DNA of 64,000 bases from Patescibacteria group bacterium (GTDB lineage: Bacteria; Patescibacteriota; Patescibacteriia; Magasanikbacterales; GWA2-37-8). A program made the position numbers and the translations under genes. The stretch lies in NCBI GenBank assembly GCA_041649475.1, contig JBAZNA010000001.1, positions 814,594-878,593 of the forward strand, given 5' to 3'. A model generated the notes under the pieces. The model saw only the letters and a list, made by a program, of their open reading frames with translations, was not told where the DNA came from and ran no database searches. Positions 4,509 through 51,872 of the stretch are shown here, in pieces. Numbering within the stretch: the stretch's first letter is position 1; each line of letters starts with the position of its first letter.

Positions 4509-6380
4509 CTATTTTGTTTGTTGTTCAAATTCTTTTTTGGCTTTTTCAATATCCAACAGCTGTTGGGGATTGGTGGTAACAATCTGATCTTCGGTGTAAC
4601 TGGCGACAACCTTGATGGCCGCGTGTTTTGATCCGGCAAAGAAAATCCCCTCGCCTACGCCGCTTTCTAAAAGCAAATATTTTTCACCTTCGGTCAGCAT
4701 AAATGTTTTTTGCACCGTATCAATGGCCGCCGGTGACTGGCGCAGTAATAATTGCAAAGACGAATTAGTGACAATGGCCTGGCCGTATTGCGACCTTAAG
4801 AAATCATTAACATCCTGCGTAATCGTGGTCACGCCCAAGAAATATTTGCGGCAGCGTTTGACCAAAGAAAATATGAACTGGGCGCTGTCTTCGTGTTGCA
4901 TCAGCCACCAGGCCTCATCAATGGCCAAAATGCGCTTTTTGCGCTCGGAACGCACCACGTTCCAAATGTAATTAACAATCGCGTAAATTGCCAAAGGCCG
5001 CAACTCATCTTCCAAATCGCGCACGCTGTATACCACCAATTGATTTTTCATGTCCACGTTGGTGGGCGCGTTAAACAAACCGCTGAAAGTGCCTTCGGTA
5101 AATTTTTTCAGTTTCAAAACCAGTTCATTTGAGCCCTCCATACCTTCCAAAATCTCCTGCAAATCCTGCATAATCGGCGCCTGTACCACGCTCAAATCCG
5201 CTTCCGGCGTAATGTCTTTTTTGGCGTAGGTTTCAATCAAAGCCCGGTCAATGATTGAATCCTGTTCGGTGGTTAACCCGCCGAACATAATACGCAGTAA
5301 GCCCTTGGCGGTAATGACCGCGCTTCGGATAATATCTTCCGTGGAAAATTCCTCGCCGCCGGTTGGCCGCGGCAAATCAAACGGGTTTACCTTGCTTTCC
5401 GATGACAAGGAAATGTTTATATACGTTCCTCCGACCGCTTCGCACAGATGTTTGTATTCCATTTCCGGATCAATCACAATCACATCAACGCCGGTCATCA
5501 TAGTGCGCAAAATTTCTAATTTTATGGTATAACTTTTACCGGCGCCGGCGGTGGCAAACACCACCATATTAGCATTCATCAAAGAAAATCTGTTAAACAA
5601 AATCAAACTGTTGTTGTGGCGGTTAACGCCGTACAAAATTCCGTCATCGGAAGTAAGTTCGGCCGAGATAAACGGAAAAGAGGCCGCTATCGGCGACGAA
5701 TTCATGTTAAAAGCAATCATCAGTTCGTCGTTGGCCAAAGGCAAAGTGGAGTTATATCCCTGTTCCGACTGATACAGCACCTTGCGGCTGGAAATGAGTT
5801 TTGAACCGAAAATATTTTCAACGTCTTCCGAGGTCTGATCAAGTTCTTCTTTGGTTTTGGCGTAAAGCGTCACGTAAAAAGTAAATTGAAAAAAATGCTC
5901 AATGCCTTGGGTGAGATTGTCGCGCAATTGTTCAATGTCGCGCAGCGCTGTTTCGCGAATCGGATCACGTGGTGCGCCTTTTTCCGTGTCAGCGTTTAAT
6001 TGCGCTTCCAAAGCGCCGACTTTGTTGCGCAATTGCTTTAAAATAACGGCCGACTTCACCGGATAAAAGAACATGCCGATATCCATGGTGATTGATAAAT
6101 TCAAAACCGGCGAACTCCAGCCGATGGAAATATACCTCGGATAACTGACCACAAAAATCGTCCGGCAAAATATATCGCCGAGCTTGATATAATTTGACTC
6201 AACATTAAAAGCCGACGGGGCGATCAAGTCCTTAATTGACACCGCTCCCTCGCGATAAAGGCGCTCTTCTTCAAGAGTGACCAATTCTCCGGCCGCCTGA
6301 TTTTTCAGTTTTGTTTCTTCGGTCTCGGGTGCGGGCGCGCCGGATGCCGTTATTTTGCCTAATTGTGGTCTAAAAGCCAT
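4509..6380 (-). CDS. virB4: VirB4/TrbE/CagE-family type IV secretion ATPase (C-terminal ATPase portion)
   Basis: Walker A FATAGAGKSYT and Walker B ILAIDEAWW. Conserved VirB4 C-terminal region (TITQDVNDF). 623 aa is shorter than typical ~800-aa VirB4. Confidence 0.8.
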   Translation of the reverse strand: MAFRPQLGKITASGAPAPETEETKLKNQAAGELVTLEEERLYREGAVSIKDLIAPSAFNVESNYIKLGDIFCRTIFVVSYPRYISIGWSSPVLNLSITMDIGMFFYPVKSAVILKQLRNKVGALEAQLNADTEKGAPRDPIRETALRDIEQLRDNLTQGIEHFFQFTFYVTLYAKTKEELDQTSEDVENIFGSKLISSRKVLYQSEQGYNSTLPLANDELMIAFNMNSSPIAASFPFISAELTSDDGILYGVNRHNNSLILFNRFSLMNANMVVFATAGAGKSYTIKLEILRTMMTGVDVIVIDPEMEYKHLCEAVGGTYINISLSSESKVNPFDLPRPTGGEEFSTEDIIRSAVITAKGLLRIMFGGLTTEQDSIIDRALIETYAKKDITPEADLSVVQAPIMQDLQEILEGMEGSNELVLKLKKFTEGTFSGLFNAPTNVDMKNQLVVYSVRDLEDELRPLAIYAIVNYIWNVVRSERKKRILAIDEAWWLMQHEDSAQFIFSLVKRCRKYFLGVTTITQDVNDFLRSQYGQAIVTNSSLQLLLRQSPAAIDTVQKTFMLTEGEKYLLLESGVGEGIFFAGSKHAAIKVVASYTEDQIVTTNPQQLLDIEKAKKEFEQQTK

Positions 6381-13372: not shown

Positions 13373-13422
13373 ATCTGGTTCCCAACCTGGTGTTGGGTAC
13401 GAAAAAGGAAAAGGAGAGGCAC

Positions 13423-15375
13423 ATGACCAAGATCGGCTTCTGTTTCGTGGCGTTTCTCGCGTTCATCCTGTGCGCCTGTGGTGGTAACTCCGGAACCGGT
13501 GATGGCGGCACGGACAACCACGACAGCGCCGTCAGCGACGGCACCCTGCCCAACGACGCCAGGGATACGGCCCCTTCGGAGTGCACGAGCAACGCGCAGT
13601 GCGACGATGGCATTGACTGCACGGACGACACCTGTTCGTCCTCGGGCTGGTGCACCAACACGCTGGTGCCGGCGCGGTGTCCGACAGGTACGTGGTGTAA
13701 TCCCACCAAAGGTTGCGAGGCCGGAAAGGCCTGCGCCAAGGACGAGGATTGCGACAGCACCGATGCCTGCGTCGTGAACAACGGCTGTGATCCTGCCTCG
13801 CGCGTCTGCATGTGGTCAGTGCTTGACGGCGATGGCGATGGACAGCCCCCGCTTGTGTGCGGCGGAACCGACTGTGATGACAGCGACTCCGACGTCTACG
13901 CCGGAGCTCCCATGCGTTGCAACGGCAAAGATAACAACTGCGATGGGATCGTGGATACCGGAACCGCCACGGACGAATGGTGCAACGAGACCTACGGACC
14001 GGGTCACGCCTGCCAGTCAGGGCACTGCGTCTGTACGACCGGGACACAGTGCGGGTACACGTGTGCGGACTTGCTCACCGACAAGAACCACTGTGGCACA
14101 TGTTTCAACCCATGTCCGCTCAATGAAGTGTGTGTACAGGGTCAGTGTGAGTGCCCGAGCAGTGGCCAGACATTCTGTGCTGTTGATGGCTGTGTTGACC
14201 TCACGAGCGACAAATACAACTGTGGCGAGTGTGAACACGGCTGCTGGGCAGACCAGACATGCGTAGCAAGTCAGTGCGCGTGTTCAGGCAACCTGACGCA
14301 ATGCGGTTCGTGTGTGGACACACAAACCGACAACGACAACTGCGGTTCGTGCGGTCACGCCTGCAGCTCGCCTGCCAGCTGTGTGTCGGGTCAGTGCCAG
14401 TGTCCGACCAGTGGCCAGAGCTATTGCGATGGCGCCGGCTGTGTGGATCTTCAGACCGACCACGACAACTGCGGCACATGCGGGCACGCGTGCCGTGCAA
14501 GCGATACATGCTGGAGCGGCAGCTGCCCGGCTTACTGGAAAAACGTCGTGAGTAACACGGCGCTGAAGCTCAACGCAGTATGGGGAGCCGCACCCAATGA
14601 TGTCTGGACTGTTGGAAACTACACCACTGGCTCCCTGGGAGGCGCCATCCACTGGAACGGTAGCTCGTGGGCGCCTATGGGTGGCGCGACATCGAAACTC
14701 TACGGAATCTGGGGAACCACGCTTAATTTCTGGGTCGTTGGAGAAACCAGCGGGTACCTCGAGGTCTGGAATGACGTCTCCGGCACTTGGGAGGGTATAC
14801 CCAACGGGTGCACGACAGCTTCCCTCTATGGTATCTGGGGAACTGCGATTGATGATACCTGGTTCGTTGGAGCCGCCGGAACGACTGTCTATTTCAACGG
14901 CAGTACGTTCTCATGCGTCCCCAGCGGTTCAACGAATGTCCTCCATGGAGTAGGAGGCACCGCCAACAATGACGTCTGGACAGTAGGAGACGGCGGTACC
15001 ATCCTCCATTGGAATGGAAGCACGTGGTCCAGCGTGACCTCCAATACGACGAACGCCCTCTATGGAGTGTGGGGCAACACCACCAGTGATGTCTGGGTGG
15101 TGGGCGACTACGGTACCACTCTTCACTGGAATGGAAGTGTGTGGTCAGCCGTCGTCAGCTACACAGGATCAAAACTCAACGGCGTGTGGGGCAGTAGTGC
15201 CAACGATGTCTGGGCTGTGGGAGATGTCGGGGTCATCCTCCACTGGAACGGGAGTAATTGGTCCACTGTTGCCACAGGGACAACGGCACATTTCTCTGCC
15301 GTGTGGGGCAACAGCGCTACTGACATCTGGGTTGTGGGAGAAGCGGGAACCACTCTCCACTACTACACGTACTGA
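13423..15375 (+). CDS. secreted Cys-rich lipoprotein with putative metal-binding Cys/Asp motif, CGxCGHxC repeats and eight C-terminal ~40-aa propeller-like repeats; very GC-rich
   Basis: Start ATG at 13423 after SD AAGGAGAGG. Signal peptide plus Cys lipobox region (FLAFILCACGG). DGDGDGQPPLVCGGTDCDDSDSDVYAGAPMRCNGKDNNCDG matches the MopE-type putative metal-binding motif. The C-terminal repeats follow WGxxxxDVWxVGxxGTxLHWNGSxWS, eight copies. GC3 is far above the genome background. Confidence 0.75.
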   Translation: MTKIGFCFVAFLAFILCACGGNSGTGDGGTDNHDSAVSDGTLPNDARDTAPSECTSNAQCDDGIDCTDDTCSSSGWCTNTLVPARCPTGTWCNPTKGCEAGKACAKDEDCDSTDACVVNNGCDPASRVCMWSVLDGDGDGQPPLVCGGTDCDDSDSDVYAGAPMRCNGKDNNCDGIVDTGTATDEWCNETYGPGHACQSGHCVCTTGTQCGYTCADLLTDKNHCGTCFNPCPLNEVCVQGQCECPSSGQTFCAVDGCVDLTSDKYNCGECEHGCWADQTCVASQCACSGNLTQCGSCVDTQTDNDNCGSCGHACSSPASCVSGQCQCPTSGQSYCDGAGCVDLQTDHDNCGTCGHACRASDTCWSGSCPAYWKNVVSNTALKLNAVWGAAPNDVWTVGNYTTGSLGGAIHWNGSSWAPMGGATSKLYGIWGTTLNFWVVGETSGYLEVWNDVSGTWEGIPNGCTTASLYGIWGTAIDDTWFVGAAGTTVYFNGSTFSCVPSGSTNVLHGVGGTANNDVWTVGDGGTILHWNGSTWSSVTSNTTNALYGVWGNTTSDVWVVGDYGTTLHWNGSVWSAVVSYTGSKLNGVWGSSANDVWAVGDVGVILHWNGSNWSTVATGTTAHFSAVWGNSATDIWVVGEAGTTLHYYTY

Positions 15376-15427
15376 CACTAGCACTGCTTCGCTCCTTCCT
15401 ACCTTTTCGCTCCTTTTCACCCCTTCG

Positions 15428-15476
15428 GCCCGGCCCTATCTGACTTCAAGGTCAGTGGGGTACGGGCTTTTTTATT
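15428..15476 (+). terminator. rho-independent terminator
   Basis: Long near-perfect hairpin gcccggccctatctgac-ttcaag-gtcagtggggtacgggc followed by TTTTTT. Confidence 0.7.
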
Positions 15477-15508
15477 TGCTAAGCCGAGCTAAAAGTGTTA
15501 ATCTACCC

Positions 15509-15537
15509 TTGACAAGAGCTCATTTTTGTGCTATACT
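15509..15537 (+). promoter_or_regulatory. sigma70-type promoter (TTGACA-17-TATACT) for second GC-rich lipoprotein gene, with ~165-nt structured leader
   Basis: Consensus -35 at 15509-15514 and -10 at 15532-15537. The leader contains hairpin GCTAAGTT...AACTTAGC (15576-15605) and the CCCAACC...GGTTGGG hairpin (15672-15691) before SD GGAAAAGGAGA. Confidence 0.55.
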
Positions 15538-15710
15538 AATCTGTTAGTTTTTAAATAGGTTGTTCTTTACAAAGTGCTAAGTTGAGCCGAAAGGCAGAAC
15601 TTAGCCAAATGAGATGGTAAGCCCAAGTTGGGGTGATAGTTGGTTCTAAAATCTTTAGACACAGCTACAACCCCAACCTTGGGTGGTTGGGAACAGGAAA
15701 AGGAGAAACC

Positions 15711-16166
15711 ATGCGCTACAACATCAAGAAGATCCTCGCGATCATGGGCGGCTTCGCCCTTGTTCTCATCGCTGTTGCGGCCCTCACCGGCTGTGGTGGC
15801 GACGATCCCCAGTGCGGAACCGACGGTCAGCCCCCGTGCGACGTTCAGGCCGACGGCGGCACCGACGGCACGCCGACCCAGCAGGACGCTGGCGACGGCG
15901 GTGTCATCAAGACCGACGGCGGCGACGCGGGCGGAGATCCGTGCGCGGCGTTCAATCCTTACCTGAACGGATGGACCTGCAAAACCGCTCCGAATGACCC
16001 ACTGTCGTTCTCCTGCAATTTCCTGCCTACCGCCGATGGCAGTGCATGCCAGATTGGCTGCTATGGCCACTTCTCGTGCATTGCTCCTCCGGAGATGTTG
16101 ACGTCGCAGGAGTTTACCTGCGATATGATCGGCGCTCCCGGAAACATCCGCATCTGTGTCCACTAG
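15711..16166 (+). CDS. small secreted Cys/Gly/Asp-rich lipoprotein; very GC-rich
   Basis: ATG at 15711 after SD AAGGAGAAACC. Signal peptide with classic lipobox LTGC. Eleven Cys in a 151-aa mature part. GC3 very high. Confidence 0.7.
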   Translation: MRYNIKKILAIMGGFALVLIAVAALTGCGGDDPQCGTDGQPPCDVQADGGTDGTPTQQDAGDGGVIKTDGGDAGGDPCAAFNPYLNGWTCKTAPNDPLSFSCNFLPTADGSACQIGCYGHFSCIAPPEMLTSQEFTCDMIGAPGNIRICVH

Positions 16167-16246
16167 TTCCACCCCACCATCTCGCTCGCGACGATTCACA
16201 AATCGTCGCGCGCTTCCCTAAGTAGAAAATAGCTTTTCTGTTGAGG

Positions 16247-40029: not shown

Positions 40030-41184
40030 TTATACGGCCTTTTCTTCTTCTTTAACAGCTTCTTCTTTAGTAGCTTCCTTAATGGTCTCGGCTTTCTTGG
40101 CGGTTTTGCCTTTAACTCCGGCCAAGCGCAAACCCAAACGGTGTTCCGGCGGTTCCAGCGACATGATTTCAAATTCAGCTGATTGGCCTAATTTGAATTT
40201 ATCATTTATATTGGCAATTGCTTCATCGGAAAGCTCGGAGATGTGCGCCAACCCGTGGATGTCTTTATCCAAAGCCACCATCAGGCCGAATGGTTCAATC
40301 TTGATTATCTTGCCCATCACCTTGTCGCCAACCTTATATTTGTCCTTGGCCAATTTCCACGGATCTTCAACCAATCGTTTGATTGATAAATATATTTTTG
40401 ATTTATCAAGCTGAATGATTTGGGCCTTAACCGCATCACCGACTTTCAAAATATCTTTCGGATGATCAATTCTCTGCCAGGCAATTTCGGAAATATGCAC
40501 CAAACCTTCCAAATCCTGACCAAATTTTACGAAGGCGCCAAAAGATGTCAGAGCGCTGACTTCGCCGTCAATTACATCACCCACTTTGTATGATTCCAAA
40601 ACGGCTTTTTGCGCGTCTTCCCAAACCGCTTTTTCAGAGACAATCAATTTTTCTTCTTTTTCATTAACATCAATCACTTTCACTTCCAATTCCTTGCCTA
40701 CCAGTTCGCGCAGTTTTTCCAAAATACGATTTTTATCACCGCCGGCCACTCTTGGATAATGTTCCGGGCTAAGTTGCGACACCGGCATAAAACCGGCCAG
40801 GGCCTCAACCTGCATCATAATACCGCCCTTGTTGGCCGACAAAACTTTTGATTTAATCGTCAGACCGTCTTTCAGCCATTTCTTCATACTGTCCCAAACA
40901 CGCTGATAGCCGGCAATGCGGAAGGAAAGTTCCATCTCGCCATTTTCATTTTCCAATTCCAAAACCGTAGCTTCCACTTCATTACCAACTTTTAAATTGG
41001 CATATTCGGCTGATTCGGAAAATAACTCGCGACCACGAACAACACCGACGGTCAGTCCGTCAATATCAACATGGATTTCGCCTTTATCAATGGAAATTAT
41101 TTTACACTTAACCACATCCCCTTCTTTGGGAATAGTCAGCGGATTGGCCTGTAGCAATGTTTTAAAATCTGTCATATTAAACAA
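40030..41184 (-). CDS. rpsA: 30S ribosomal protein S1 (four S1 domains)
   Basis: Repeated S1 OB-fold motifs (GDVVKCKIISIDKGEIHVD, GDVIDGEVSALTSFGAFVKF, GDKVMGKIIKIEPFGLMVAL). Confidence 0.8.
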   Translation of the reverse strand: MFNMTDFKTLLQANPLTIPKEGDVVKCKIISIDKGEIHVDIDGLTVGVVRGRELFSESAEYANLKVGNEVEATVLELENENGEMELSFRIAGYQRVWDSMKKWLKDGLTIKSKVLSANKGGIMMQVEALAGFMPVSQLSPEHYPRVAGGDKNRILEKLRELVGKELEVKVIDVNEKEEKLIVSEKAVWEDAQKAVLESYKVGDVIDGEVSALTSFGAFVKFGQDLEGLVHISEIAWQRIDHPKDILKVGDAVKAQIIQLDKSKIYLSIKRLVEDPWKLAKDKYKVGDKVMGKIIKIEPFGLMVALDKDIHGLAHISELSDEAIANINDKFKLGQSAEFEIMSLEPPEHRLGLRLAGVKGKTAKKAETIKEATKEEAVKEEEKAV

Positions 41185-41266
41185 AAAAAATTTTCTTAGC
41201 CCCTCTCAAATCTTAGTTGAAATGGAGTTTTCTCCGCTAAAATTGGGAGAAATTTAGTGTAATTGG

Positions 41267-41295
41267 ATTATACCGCAACCCTGCAAATTTGTCAA
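41267..41295 (-). promoter_or_regulatory. sigma70-type promoter for rpsA (TTGACA-17-TATAAT)
   Basis: Minus-strand reading is TTGACAaatttgcagggttgcggTATAATcc. Perfect consensus. Confidence 0.6.
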
Positions 41296-41333
41296 TAAAA
41301 AAGGGCTAAGCCGCACGAAGACGGATTAGCCGG
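41296..41333 (-). terminator. putative terminator after the small GC-rich ORF
   Basis: Minus strand is cccGGCTAAtccgtcttcgtgcggcTTAGCCc followed by TTTTTT. A 6-bp stem with a large loop, moderate quality. Confidence 0.4.
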
Positions 41334-41367
41334 GACGGGACTGCCGGGACTAAGGAGCAGAGGCGCA

Positions 41368-41535
41368 CTAGGTCAGCCGGGGATCCTTCTCCGGAGGCGG
41401 AGGATCAAGCTGTACCTGCACCCCTTGAGGAGGAGGCACGATCCGCTGAAACGGGCTCGTGTCATCGGTATCAATGGAACCAGAAACCGGTTCCGGGTTA
41501 TTGCCGACCGTGTTGTCGTCCTCTTCGTATTTCAT
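41368..41535 (-). CDS. small (55 aa) acidic, Pro-rich protein encoded in a GC-rich island
   Basis: Minus-strand ORF MKYEEDDNTVGNNPEPVSGSIDTDDTSPFQRIVPPPQGVQVQLDPPPPEKDPRLT with SD GGGAGGA 5 nt before the ATG. Local GC about 60% against about 40% flanks. Shorter than the ORF-track cutoff. Confidence 0.45.
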   Translation of the reverse strand: MKYEEDDNTVGNNPEPVSGSIDTDDTSPFQRIVPPPQGVQVQLDPPPPEKDPRLT

Positions 41536-41590
41536 CTACATCCTCCCTTGAAAGGGTTGCGGATAAAGTGGCAGGGCTAAATTATATAAT

Positions 41591-41616
41591 AAAAAAATAA
41601 GCCCGTCAATGGGCTT
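41591..41616 (-). terminator. rho-independent terminator of uvrC
   Basis: Minus-strand hairpin AAGCCCattgacGGGCTT followed by ATTTTTTT. Confidence 0.6.
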
Positions 41617-41638
41617 ATCTCATGCACAAAATATTAAT

Positions 41639-42787
41639 TTAAATTTTTCCACGGCGGCGGCGATGCGCTTTAATTGCAAATCTGTGCGCCTCGTCCCGGG
41701 TACGAAGCAGTGCACGCCGGTTTATTTCGGACAATTCTTTAAAATTTGGTTTCGTGCCGACCGGAAAAATTAATTTATCATTTTGAAATTTTGAAATTCC
41801 CAGCATCGGGATAGCAATACGATTTTTGTCCAAAACTTTGGCGACAAAATCAACCTGCGGTTTGCCGCCGTCAATTAAAATCAAATCCGGCCGCGGCCAC
41901 TCCGGATGTTTAAAACGCCTTTCCACCATTTCTTTTAAAGATTCTAAGTCATTGTTGGTGACCGTGCGGATTTTAAATAATCTATATTGCGAATTGTCCG
42001 GCTGGCCATTTGTCAGTACCACCATTGACCCGTAACTTTCTTTGCCGGCAAAATGAGAAATATCATACCCTTCTATTCTGTGGAAGGTGACCGGCCCGAC
42101 ATCCTCGCGTGAAATTAAAGTGACATCCTGAATGTGTTTTAAAGCCGCGGCTGCGGATGGATTTTCCTTAGCTAATTTTTTTAATAATCTTTTTTTCTCG
42201 CCTTTTAAAAATAAAATAATATTATCAATATTTTTTTGATAATCTTCTTTTGAAATTGCGCCGACGCACGCGCCCGGACACAGGCCGATATGATAATCAA
42301 AACATGCCCTGCCTGAAAGCGGCTTGCATGTGCCATACGGGAAAACGCGGCGAATAATTTTCAAAGCATTTTTTATGATTGTCTGGCTTTGATACGGCCC
42401 GAAAATTTTGGCCGAAGACGGCGGAAATTTTTCCAGTTCCCGGCCGCGCACAATGAGCGGCCTGGGGTAATCAATTTTGGGAATGACTAAAAAAATAAAC
42501 GAACGGTTGTCTTTATCTTTCACATTATATTTTGGCCAATATTTTTTTATCAGATTCGCCTCCAGCACAATCGCGTCCAGTACTGTCTCAACCTTGTGAT
42601 GCCTGATTTTTTTGGCCTTGCTCACCATTTCACCGATGCGCGGATCTGTGTCGGGTCGGAAATACTGCGAAACACGCCGGCGCAAAGATGTGGCTTTGCC
42701 GACATATAAAGGTTTATTATTCTTATCAATGAAAATATAAACCCCCGGCGTCAGTGGCAATTTTTTAACTTGATCTGATAATGACAT
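41639..42787 (-). CDS. uvrC: excinuclease ABC subunit C, short form lacking the C-terminal (HhH)2 domain
   Basis: N-terminal GIY-YIG (PGVYIFIDKNNKPLYVGKATSLRRRV), Cys cluster (CFDYHIGLCPGAC) and RNase-H-like endonuclease domain (IDGGKPQ). 382 aa. Confidence 0.75.
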   Translation of the reverse strand: MSLSDQVKKLPLTPGVYIFIDKNNKPLYVGKATSLRRRVSQYFRPDTDPRIGEMVSKAKKIRHHKVETVLDAIVLEANLIKKYWPKYNVKDKDNRSFIFLVIPKIDYPRPLIVRGRELEKFPPSSAKIFGPYQSQTIIKNALKIIRRVFPYGTCKPLSGRACFDYHIGLCPGACVGAISKEDYQKNIDNIILFLKGEKKRLLKKLAKENPSAAAALKHIQDVTLISREDVGPVTFHRIEGYDISHFAGKESYGSMVVLTNGQPDNSQYRLFKIRTVTNNDLESLKEMVERRFKHPEWPRPDLILIDGGKPQVDFVAKVLDKNRIAIPMLGISKFQNDKLIFPVGTKPNFKELSEINRRALLRTRDEAHRFAIKAHRRRRGKI

Positions 42788-51257: not shown

Positions 51258-51872
51258 ATGCACATCAGTTGGTTTGGCCAAACATGCGTAAAACTGCAGA
51301 CAAAAAACTCCGACACCGACGTAACCATTTTAATTGACGCCTACAGACCCAAACACGGCGAATTCCCGCGAAGTTTTTCTCCGGATGTGGCCCTATATTC
51401 CAATGGCGACAAAGACGCGGCCACCCTTTCTCAAAACCCGTTTGTGGTTGATTCACTGGGTGAATTTGAGGTAAAAGGCGCAATGATCTACGCAATGCCG
51501 GGCACTTCCGGCAACATCATCTATAAAGTAAACGCCGAAAATTTAACATTGGTGCATTTAGGGCGTATAAATAAACCCTTAGAAAACGGCGACTTGGAAA
51601 AAATTCTTAGTCCGGATATTTTGGTAATTCCGGTGGGCGGGGCGCCCGGATACCTTGATCCGAAAGCCGCCGCCGCACTGGCCACCGAGCTTGAGCCGCG
51701 CATTATTATTCCCATCGGCTATAAATGCGACACCGATCCGGACGCCAAACCGATTTCGTCGTTTATCACCGAGATGGGACTAAAGCCGGAAGCAACCGAG
51801 AAAAAGGTAATCATAAAAAAGAAAGACCTGCCGCAGGACGAAACAAAATTAATCGTACTGGAAAAAGAATAA
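51258..51872 (+). CDS. metal-dependent hydrolase, beta-lactamase-fold-like (COG2220-type), tentative
   Basis: Overall pattern (ISWFGQTCVKL...ILIDAY...VIPVGG...IIIPIGY) resembles UlaG-like hydrolases, but the canonical HxHxDH motif is not evident. Confidence 0.4.
   Translation: MHISWFGQTCVKLQTKNSDTDVTILIDAYRPKHGEFPRSFSPDVALYSNGDKDAATLSQNPFVVDSLGEFEVKGAMIYAMPGTSGNIIYKVNAENLTLVHLGRINKPLENGDLEKILSPDILVIPVGGAPGYLDPKAAAALATELEPRIIIPIGYKCDTDPDAKPISSFITEMGLKPEATEKKVIIKKKDLPQDETKLIVLEKE

Follow-up and report, generated by a model that had tools for sequence, protein, structure and literature searches.

The locus between uvrC and rpsA in the genome of a Patescibacteria group bacterium raises the question of whether a short patch of DNA rich in guanine plus cytosine (GC) holds a gene, and whether such a gene came from elsewhere. 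The window analysed is a stretch of 64,000 nt (contig JBAZNA010000001.1, positions 814,594 to 878,593). The original prediction had placed in this patch, on the minus strand, an unannotated open reading frame (ORF) for a peptide of 55 aa, and had supposed a foreign source common to the patch, a lipoprotein island and the ORF at 1223-1942. In the reading that we favour, and hold to be likely if well short of assured, the patch carries an independently transcribed small gene, a diverged representative of a very small family that is seated in the uvrC-rpsA slot and confined to one Patescibacteria subclade.

An ortholog of the small gene (P0002; 54 aa, 87% identical) was found on three short Logan contigs (L082-84) with the same uvrC-[ORF]-rpsA order. 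The runs SRR25490521, SRR25490519 and SRR25490545 carry the ortholog, and an identical contig occurs in SRR8542065. The L082 genome belongs to a close relative that is nonetheless distinct, with an rpsA protein 99% identical and a uvrC whose C-terminal half is about 88% identical. Ordered from uvrC towards rpsA, and with untranslated region abbreviated as UTR and Shine-Dalgarno sequence as SD, the elements of the unit and its borders in the window are:

41594..41621, minus strand: intrinsic terminator of uvrC, an 11-pair stem and then a T-run, conserved in L082
41581..41609, minus strand: sigma-70-type promoter of the small gene, TTGACG-17-TATAAT, 11/12 consensus matches
41536..41574, minus strand: 5' UTR of the small gene, with a predicted start site at about 41574
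41547..41541, minus strand: SD, GGGAGGA, 5 nt ahead of the ATG
41368..41535, minus strand: coding sequence (CDS) of the 55-aa protein MKYEEDDNTVGNNPEPVSGSIDTDDTSPFQRIVPPPQGVQVQLDPPPPEKDPRLT, with stop codon TAG at 41370..41368
41332..41367, minus strand: GC-rich 3' UTR, about 36 nt before the terminator stem
41297..41331, minus strand: intrinsic terminator of the small gene, with hairpin 41331..41304 and T6 41302..41297, from the minimum-free-energy fold
41267..41295, minus strand: rpsA promoter, TTGACA-17-TATAAT, 12/12 matches, directly adjoining the T6 and forming the downstream boundary of the unit

Most of this architecture had been anticipated. The ORF from 41535 to 41368 was recovered with a translation identical to the peptide given in the original prediction, the SD lay where it had been read, and the possible -10 box after the uvrC terminator (TATAAT, 41586..41581) was found to be paired with a -35 box (TTGACG, 41609..41604) at a spacing of 17 nt. 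The hairpin and T6 ahead of the rpsA promoter were likewise found, and with them the self-contained transcription unit of promoter, SD, ORF and terminator. The label of unannotated had to be dropped, as an identical protein is present in GenBank under the entry 'MAG: hypothetical protein WC526_04255 [Patescibacteria group bacterium]', in which MAG stands for metagenome-assembled genome.

L082 keeps the promoter, SD, ATG and terminator stem of the small gene. In the stem, GGCUAAuCCGU/GCGGcUUAGCC, one U-A pair has changed to U-G in L082 and the internal mismatch stays. The promoters ahead of the orthologs or homologs in L082 (TTGACG-17-TATCAT) and in two further relatives, L086 and L087, have 10/12 matches each, and the 12/12 rpsA promoter is present in all three. 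The layout common to the examined forms is thus a uvrC terminator, a promoter with 10-11/12 matches, the ORF, a terminator and the 12/12 rpsA promoter. The promoter and terminator scan called no terminator 3' of the ORF in any locus; those of the window and L082 were read from the fold, and those of L085, L086 and L087 from a hairpin-like segment plus T-run in the alignment. By Pfam, the upstream neighbour is a UvrC of 382 aa (GIY-YIG plus UvrC RNase H domain) and the downstream one a four-domain S1 protein. Because every gene here has a promoter and a terminator to itself, the small gene is linked to its two neighbours by position and not by transcription.

An ORF of 55 codons in GC-rich DNA is, by length alone, within reach of chance. 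This one is raised above chance because it is conserved in a relative with a coding pattern of substitutions, so that the comparison of orthologous spacers proposed along with the original prediction favours a gene. Over 54 aligned codons, the window and L082 differ at 5, 4 and 21 sites of the first, second and third codon positions, which amounts to 16 synonymous and 7 nonsynonymous differences plus a shift of the stop codon. The ratio of nonsynonymous to synonymous rates (dN/dS, or omega; Nei-Gojobori) came to 0.082 over the whole alignment and to 0.038 over codons 1-35, compared with 0.099 for uvrC and 0.010 for rpsA in the same pair of genomes. Against neutrality, the synonymous excess had a binomial P of ~1e-6 and the third-position excess a P of ~4e-5. 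When all six frames were compared between both genomes, the annotated frame alone was both open and constrained: one antisense frame has a low omega but is broken by three stops, and the others had omega values of 1.9-4.7. Two antisense ORFs on the plus strand (41425..41580 and 41459..41551) were discarded on the same grounds, as the stop-free antisense frames have omega above 2 and the low-omega frame its 3 stops. From this pattern of substitutions we conclude that the ORF behaves as a translated gene under selection and not as an RNA element.

The same comparison bears on the possibility that the transcript is a non-coding or structural small RNA with a fortuitous ORF, or an RNA with a dual function. 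The transcript of about 280 nt folds modestly better than its shuffles (z -2.47), and a two-sequence consensus fold retains most pairs. However, compensatory change was found in only 2 of the 68 predicted pairs, and the three-base periodicity and synonymous excess, confined to one open frame, are not a product of constraint at the RNA level. Moreover, homologs of a longer form, described below, conserve protein motifs despite DNA that is poorly alignable. A search of Rfam returned only tRNAs elsewhere and chance-level matches, both over the whole window at gathering thresholds and over 41100-41700 at E up to 10, and a tRNA and tmRNA scan gave none at the small-gene locus. An RNA identity is therefore, in our judgement, highly improbable, though the transcript may have some additional role as RNA.

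Some minor features of the leader and trailer of the unit were also recorded. The hairpin of the uvrC terminator contains, in its loop and 3' arm, the -35 box of the small gene; this overlap is kept in L082, whereas in L086 and L087 the two elements lie about 20 nt apart. A weak hairpin in the 5' UTR may pair the SD and AUG, and the substitutions between the window and L082 keep its pairs (one compensatory, three one-sided); as an element that would occlude the SD it is a weak candidate, since its stability was unexceptional against shuffles (z -0.3 and -1.7). The SD is followed, ahead of the real AUG, by a minimal AUG-UAG start-stop pair (GGAGGAUGUAGAUG; 41536-41540 / 41533-41535, minus strand), which is not present in L082 (GGAGGGUAUAGAUG) and is therefore probably incidental. 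A perfect complementarity of 10 nt between the 5' UTR (41562..41553) and the spacer of the rpsA promoter (41282..41273) was rejected, with about 0.1 such matches expected by chance and no conservation in L082. In the 3' UTR, 15 nt (AGTCCCGGCAGTCCC; 41337-41351, minus strand) that L082 does not have resemble a tandem duplication of AGTCCCG.

The peptide retrieved only itself and P0002 from 5.8 billion protein clusters. An exhaustive HMMER search of 1.84 billion representatives added to P0002 a single artefact, P0003, an adhesin-like protein of 2048 aa whose 11 identical repeats, with AGNSSDPVKGSINTDTT resembling VGNNPEPVSGSIDTDDT, each weakly resemble residues 10-28 of the peptide. This candidate was rejected as a coincidence with a common end motif of Ig-like domains, and its E-value of 1e-8 is inflated because 11 identical weak matches were summed. 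A peptide query of JGI metagenome contigs gave no match, and neither did a search of viral contigs.

Syntenic loci were also gathered, via uvrC in a genome collection and via rpsA in a metagenome collection. Three relatives with rpsA 86-90% identical (L085, L086 and L087) have in the uvrC-rpsA spacer an ORF of 78-86 aa on the same strand, to which the window peptide showed weak links by tblastn (E 3e-4 for L087 and 1e-3 for L086). When a long form and then a joint profile were used as queries against the 5.8 billion clusters, the family came to 8 clusters (P0001, P0002 and P0004-P0009), with P0001 recovered at 9.6e-14. Alignment of the short pair with the long forms by hhalign had a probability of 87.5% (E 3.6e-6) over 43 columns with 42% identity. 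All members with readable flanks (the window, L082-84, L085, L086, L087, L165 and the contig of P0005) lie in the uvrC-rpsA slot on the same strand. Neither short nor long forms had any match in Pfam, NCBIfam, PHROGs or PADLOC at E up to 10, and the sole match of a profile search of the PDB, at E = 1.1, was disregarded. On these sequence comparisons, the small gene is a lineage-specific gene of a narrow Patescibacteria group and belongs to no named family.

Ten positions are invariant across P0001, P0002 and P0004-8 (G12, N13, N14, P15, P17, V18, G20, P34, P44 and P46 in the numbering of P0004). The core motif, VGNNPxPVxG and then (V/S)(L/I)D, has diverged in P0009, and a second motif, VPP(H/P)Q, reads IVPPPQ in the window and IVPPHQ in L082 and is followed by a Pro-rich acidic linker. 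The long forms have in addition a strongly conserved C-terminal module, FIDQLADGFRQIPPGxxAYYR(V/I)xL, which was looked for in the window and L082 proteins and found in neither. Therefore, the window copy is a truncated subtype and not a member with the full architecture. The module was deleted rather than frameshifted, because a 3' UTR of about 36 nt is too short for the relic of a module of about 27 codons. At the other end, KKGKAVRR of the long forms is replaced by KYEEDDNT in the window copy, and the isoelectric point (pI) is 4.05-4.29 in the short forms and 9.2-9.8 in the long ones. The ends of both short forms also differ (KDPRLT in the window, KDHHL in L082).

This remodelling gives its substance to the main rival of a retained function, namely that the ORF is a decaying remnant, the truncated relic of a longer family gene, perhaps transcribed but functionless and heading for loss. 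The copy is without the C-terminal module, the best-conserved part of all long forms, its N-terminal charge is reversed, its C-terminal third is more variable (omega 0.117), and gene turnover is seen in the slot of relatives. However, a neutral remnant would be expected to show an omega near 1 and indels, whereas at a dS of ~0.4-0.9 both short-form lineages retain an open frame with its ATG and SD, as well as the promoter and the terminator. The overall dN/dS, from one pair of sequences, is as low as that of uvrC and comes with the synonymous excess already given. We therefore consider a decaying relic quite unlikely, and prefer a gene of which the short form would have kept a selected function after truncation, possibly narrowed or altered. 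In the lineage of the window, the C-terminal module was lost and the N-terminus turned from basic to acidic, with retention of a core of VGNNPxPVxG, VPP(H/P)Q and the Pro-rich part.

The original description of the product as acidic, disordered and Pro-rich was supported. The 55-aa protein has a pI of 4.05, a net charge of -7.5, 11 Pro among its 55 residues and a grand average of hydropathy of -1.14, with no hydrophobic segment, no Cys and no start resembling a signal peptide. AlphaFold2 with the family alignment gave no secondary-structure element for the window protein (predicted template modelling score 0.16) and, for a long form, a single helix of 8 residues within the C-terminal module (0.14). 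The product is thus probably unfolded, cytosolic and intrinsically disordered, according to these models. Our best guess for its mode of action, by analogy, is that of a disordered linear-motif ligand, in which the small protein would present short conserved motifs (GNNPxPV and VPPHQ) to a larger partner protein.

The position of the ORF right upstream of rpsA, together with its PPP and PPPP runs, might instead suggest a cis-acting leader peptide or upstream ORF in which stalling at polyproline tunes rpsA. This role is unlikely because a terminator and the 12/12 rpsA promoter intervene, an arrangement kept in L082, L086 and L087, because rpsA has its own conserved structured leader 3' of that promoter, and because the polyproline runs are not conserved, as they are replaced by PPH and PSPP in L082 and the long forms show no run beyond PP. 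Known leader peptides and upstream ORFs of ribosomal or biosynthetic genes resemble the small gene in being short ORFs directly upstream of, here, a ribosomal protein gene. The small gene differs in being cut off from rpsA by its own terminator and the rpsA promoter, and in being conserved at the amino-acid level, beyond length or stalling codons. Such a role is in our view scarcely tenable, and an independent gene is the better account of the ORF.

The GC-rich patch that had drawn attention to the locus, estimated at about 250 nt and 60% GC, was confirmed: GC is 58.5% over 41300-41540 and 44.3% over the whole 64-kb window, with a standard deviation of 7.6 points among windows of 100 nt. At that scale, GC reaches 65% at 41300-41399 and 63% at 41350-41449, with 31-36% on either side, and the top 0.5% of windows includes 41301-41430. 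The expected GC of the CDS was computed from the peptide composition and the codon usage of 17 long window genes, and was 52.0% as compared with the 57.6% observed. Amino-acid composition, through the GC-raising residues Pro, Gly, Asp, Glu, Val and Gln, explains about 58% of the excess of the CDS over the background of 44.3% (GC at first codon positions 0.68). GC at third codon positions (GC3) was 0.618, against 0.487 expected from window codon usage (z = 2.1, a mild excess for 55 codons), and the 3' UTR plus terminator (41300-41367) reach 63% GC. The GC spike is therefore mainly compositional, with the addition of a moderately raised GC3 and of a GC-rich 3' UTR and terminator.

That remaining excess of GC3, and the GC-rich trailer, are what would be seen if the patch were a recently acquired islet from a donor of higher GC, with a source common to the lipoprotein island (13.4-16.2 kb) and the ORF at 1223-1942. 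The spacers of several relatives also hold unrelated ORFs and lie 5-7 GC points above the locus mean, compatible with a site permissive for insertion. However, most of the GC excess is accounted for by amino-acid composition, and the small gene is found in the same slot and on the same strand in genomes with rpsA 86-99% identical, so any acquisition would predate that subclade. Comparison of DNA and protein within the window revealed no similarity to the other GC-rich islands, no paralogs and no repeats; no mobility genes were seen, and the flanks of the small gene have no repeats of the kind left at target sites, the sole direct repeat being a resemblance, 78% over 18 nt, between both junctions of terminator and promoter. 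Nor was any homolog detected outside the clade in the 5.8 billion clusters, the 1.84 billion representatives, the JGI metagenome contigs or the viral contigs. The common foreign source originally proposed was thus not borne out, given the conserved slot, the lack of similarity among islands and the lack of outside homologs, and a recent acquisition appears very unlikely. There may have been an ancient insertion at the base of the subclade. Within the subclade, we infer vertical inheritance, because slot, strand and the layout of promoter and terminator are the same in relatives with rpsA 86-90% identical.

A stronger GC-rich island is present elsewhere in the window, at 13390-16199. It contains an ORF of 661 aa with a lipoprotein-like start (GC 59%, GC3 0.69), which lies on the plus strand among almost exclusively minus-strand genes, and an ORF of 210 aa (GC 58.5%). 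The 13.4-16.1 kb segment is a much more extreme GC outlier than the patch between uvrC and rpsA, and the island is the better candidate for foreign DNA.

The uvrC-rpsA spacer in relatives (L003-L009 and L085-L097) is a hotspot of gene turnover. Its length ranges from 118 to 1610 nt across 15 loci with the uvrC-rpsA arrangement; the slot is empty in L003, L005 and L094, and such 'empty' spacers, of 118-220 nt, hold only a terminator, a promoter and the leader. Unrelated orphan ORFs fill it in L004, L007/L009, L090, L093 and L097, at the following positions (locus and coordinates, ORF in the slot):

L007:4299-4733, orphan ORF
L009:4280-4825 and 4957-5526, orphan ORFs
L004:4371-4685, orphan ORF
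L090:1804-2172, orphan ORF
L093:1831-2166, orphan ORF
L097:1059-1262, orphan ORF

Among these only the ORFs of L007 and L009 resemble each other, the spacers usually lie 5-7 GC points above the locus mean, and no match to Pfam was found for the slot ORFs of relatives outside the family. The acidic ORF of 67 aa in L097 was tried as a family member and rejected, as it had no detectable relation (hhalign probability 0.3%).

One may go further and see in the spacer a cradle for new small genes, in which the family arose and where the short form, far from being a relic, is a small disordered protein that has taken on a new function. The family of 8 clusters would have been born there either de novo or out of an insert that can no longer be traced, the C-terminal helix would have been lost and the net charge moved from about +3 to -7.5, with strong purifying selection throughout, and the orphan ORFs of the sister lineages (L004, L007/L009, L090, L093 and L097) would be parallel births or captures. 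We regard this extended scenario as doubtful, though deserving some weight, and retain the more restricted reading of a diverged member of a slot-bound family.

Several points weigh against that reading. The selection test was made on one orthologous pair of 54 codons, and the case for a gene is drawn entirely from sequence and structure prediction. The long forms evolve fast, with a dN/dS of 0.51 between P0004 and P0006, and the loss of the most conserved module of the family together with the reversal of charge means that the short form could be degenerating. As evidence for disorder, AlphaFold2 predictions from 7-8 sequences are weak, and the motif-ligand mode was deduced from composition and from the absence of a predicted fold. 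Finally, GC3 above the prediction from window codon usage is a part of the GC spike for which composition does not account.

The small gene resembles the taxonomically restricted, unannotatable genes of Patescibacteria described in 2022 (PMC9132574) in having no relatives in Pfam, NCBIfam or the PDB and in its confinement to a low taxonomic rank. That set is a class of genes and not a functional family, and the small gene adds to it fixed synteny, selection as measured above, and a truncated derivative with flipped charge.

The characterised cytosolic small proteins of bacteria (<100 aa) generally act by binding larger proteins (PMC10730256). The product would share with these its size, an independent small transcription unit, the lack of an enzymatic domain and a plausible action by binding; it has no sequence relation to any named small protein. 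Being Pro-rich and, by prediction, wholly disordered, it differs from the many characterised examples that are membrane helices or small folded domains.

A strong negative charge (-7.5 over 55 residues in our case) is also found in acidic proteins that mimic DNA and counter restriction, such as Ocr and ArdA. These are folded, larger and borne by phages or plasmids. Acidity is not a trait of the small-gene family, given its basic long forms, and there was no match to PHROGs, PADLOC, viral contigs or the PDB.

Taken alone, the small gene is of little weight, being one more selected small protein gene among the lineage-specific unknowns of Patescibacteria, and the local GC spike is mostly composition, with no scar of transfer. 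Its modest value would lie in being a test case for the birth, remodelling and retention of small disordered proteins in the reduced genomes of episymbionts. The family comprises 8 clusters at a constant genomic position, its truncation and reversal of charge are dated, and the slot of sister lineages is empty or differently filled. Identification of a partner protein would make the invariant GNNPxPV a new short linear motif.

The neighbouring genes also showed features of their own. Downstream of the perfect promoter, the 5' leader of rpsA (window 41176-41262, minus strand) is conserved in every relative examined (L003, L004, L005, L082, L085-L089, L094, L097, L112, L136 and L165). It consists of a hairpin, UUUCUCC/GGAGAAA, a covarying second stem (for example, CUCC...GGGG versus CCUU...AAGG) and the stretch GGGxUAAGAAAA-U8-GU, followed by the start codon, with double changes in 4 of its 13 consensus pairs. 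The leader matched no Rfam family at threshold and is a candidate S1 autoregulatory leader in this Patescibacteria clade.

Of the domain models, only GIY-YIG and UvrC RNase H matched UvrC (window 41639-42787, minus strand; 382 aa) at E up to 1, and no model of the C-terminal (HhH)2 domain did. The short form of UvrC is also present across the Patescibacteria relatives obtained in the genome search with uvrC, and the MAGs of several of them are labelled 'uncultured Gammaproteobacteria', 'Udaeobacter' or 'Bacillota', which looks like mislabelling. In more distant relatives (L089, L098, L103 and L109), the place of uvrC upstream of rpsA is taken by a divergently oriented homolog of the MHISWFGQTCVKLQTK... 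protein encoded at 51258-51872 on the plus strand of the window. Therefore, the adjacency of uvrC and rpsA is itself restricted to a subclade.

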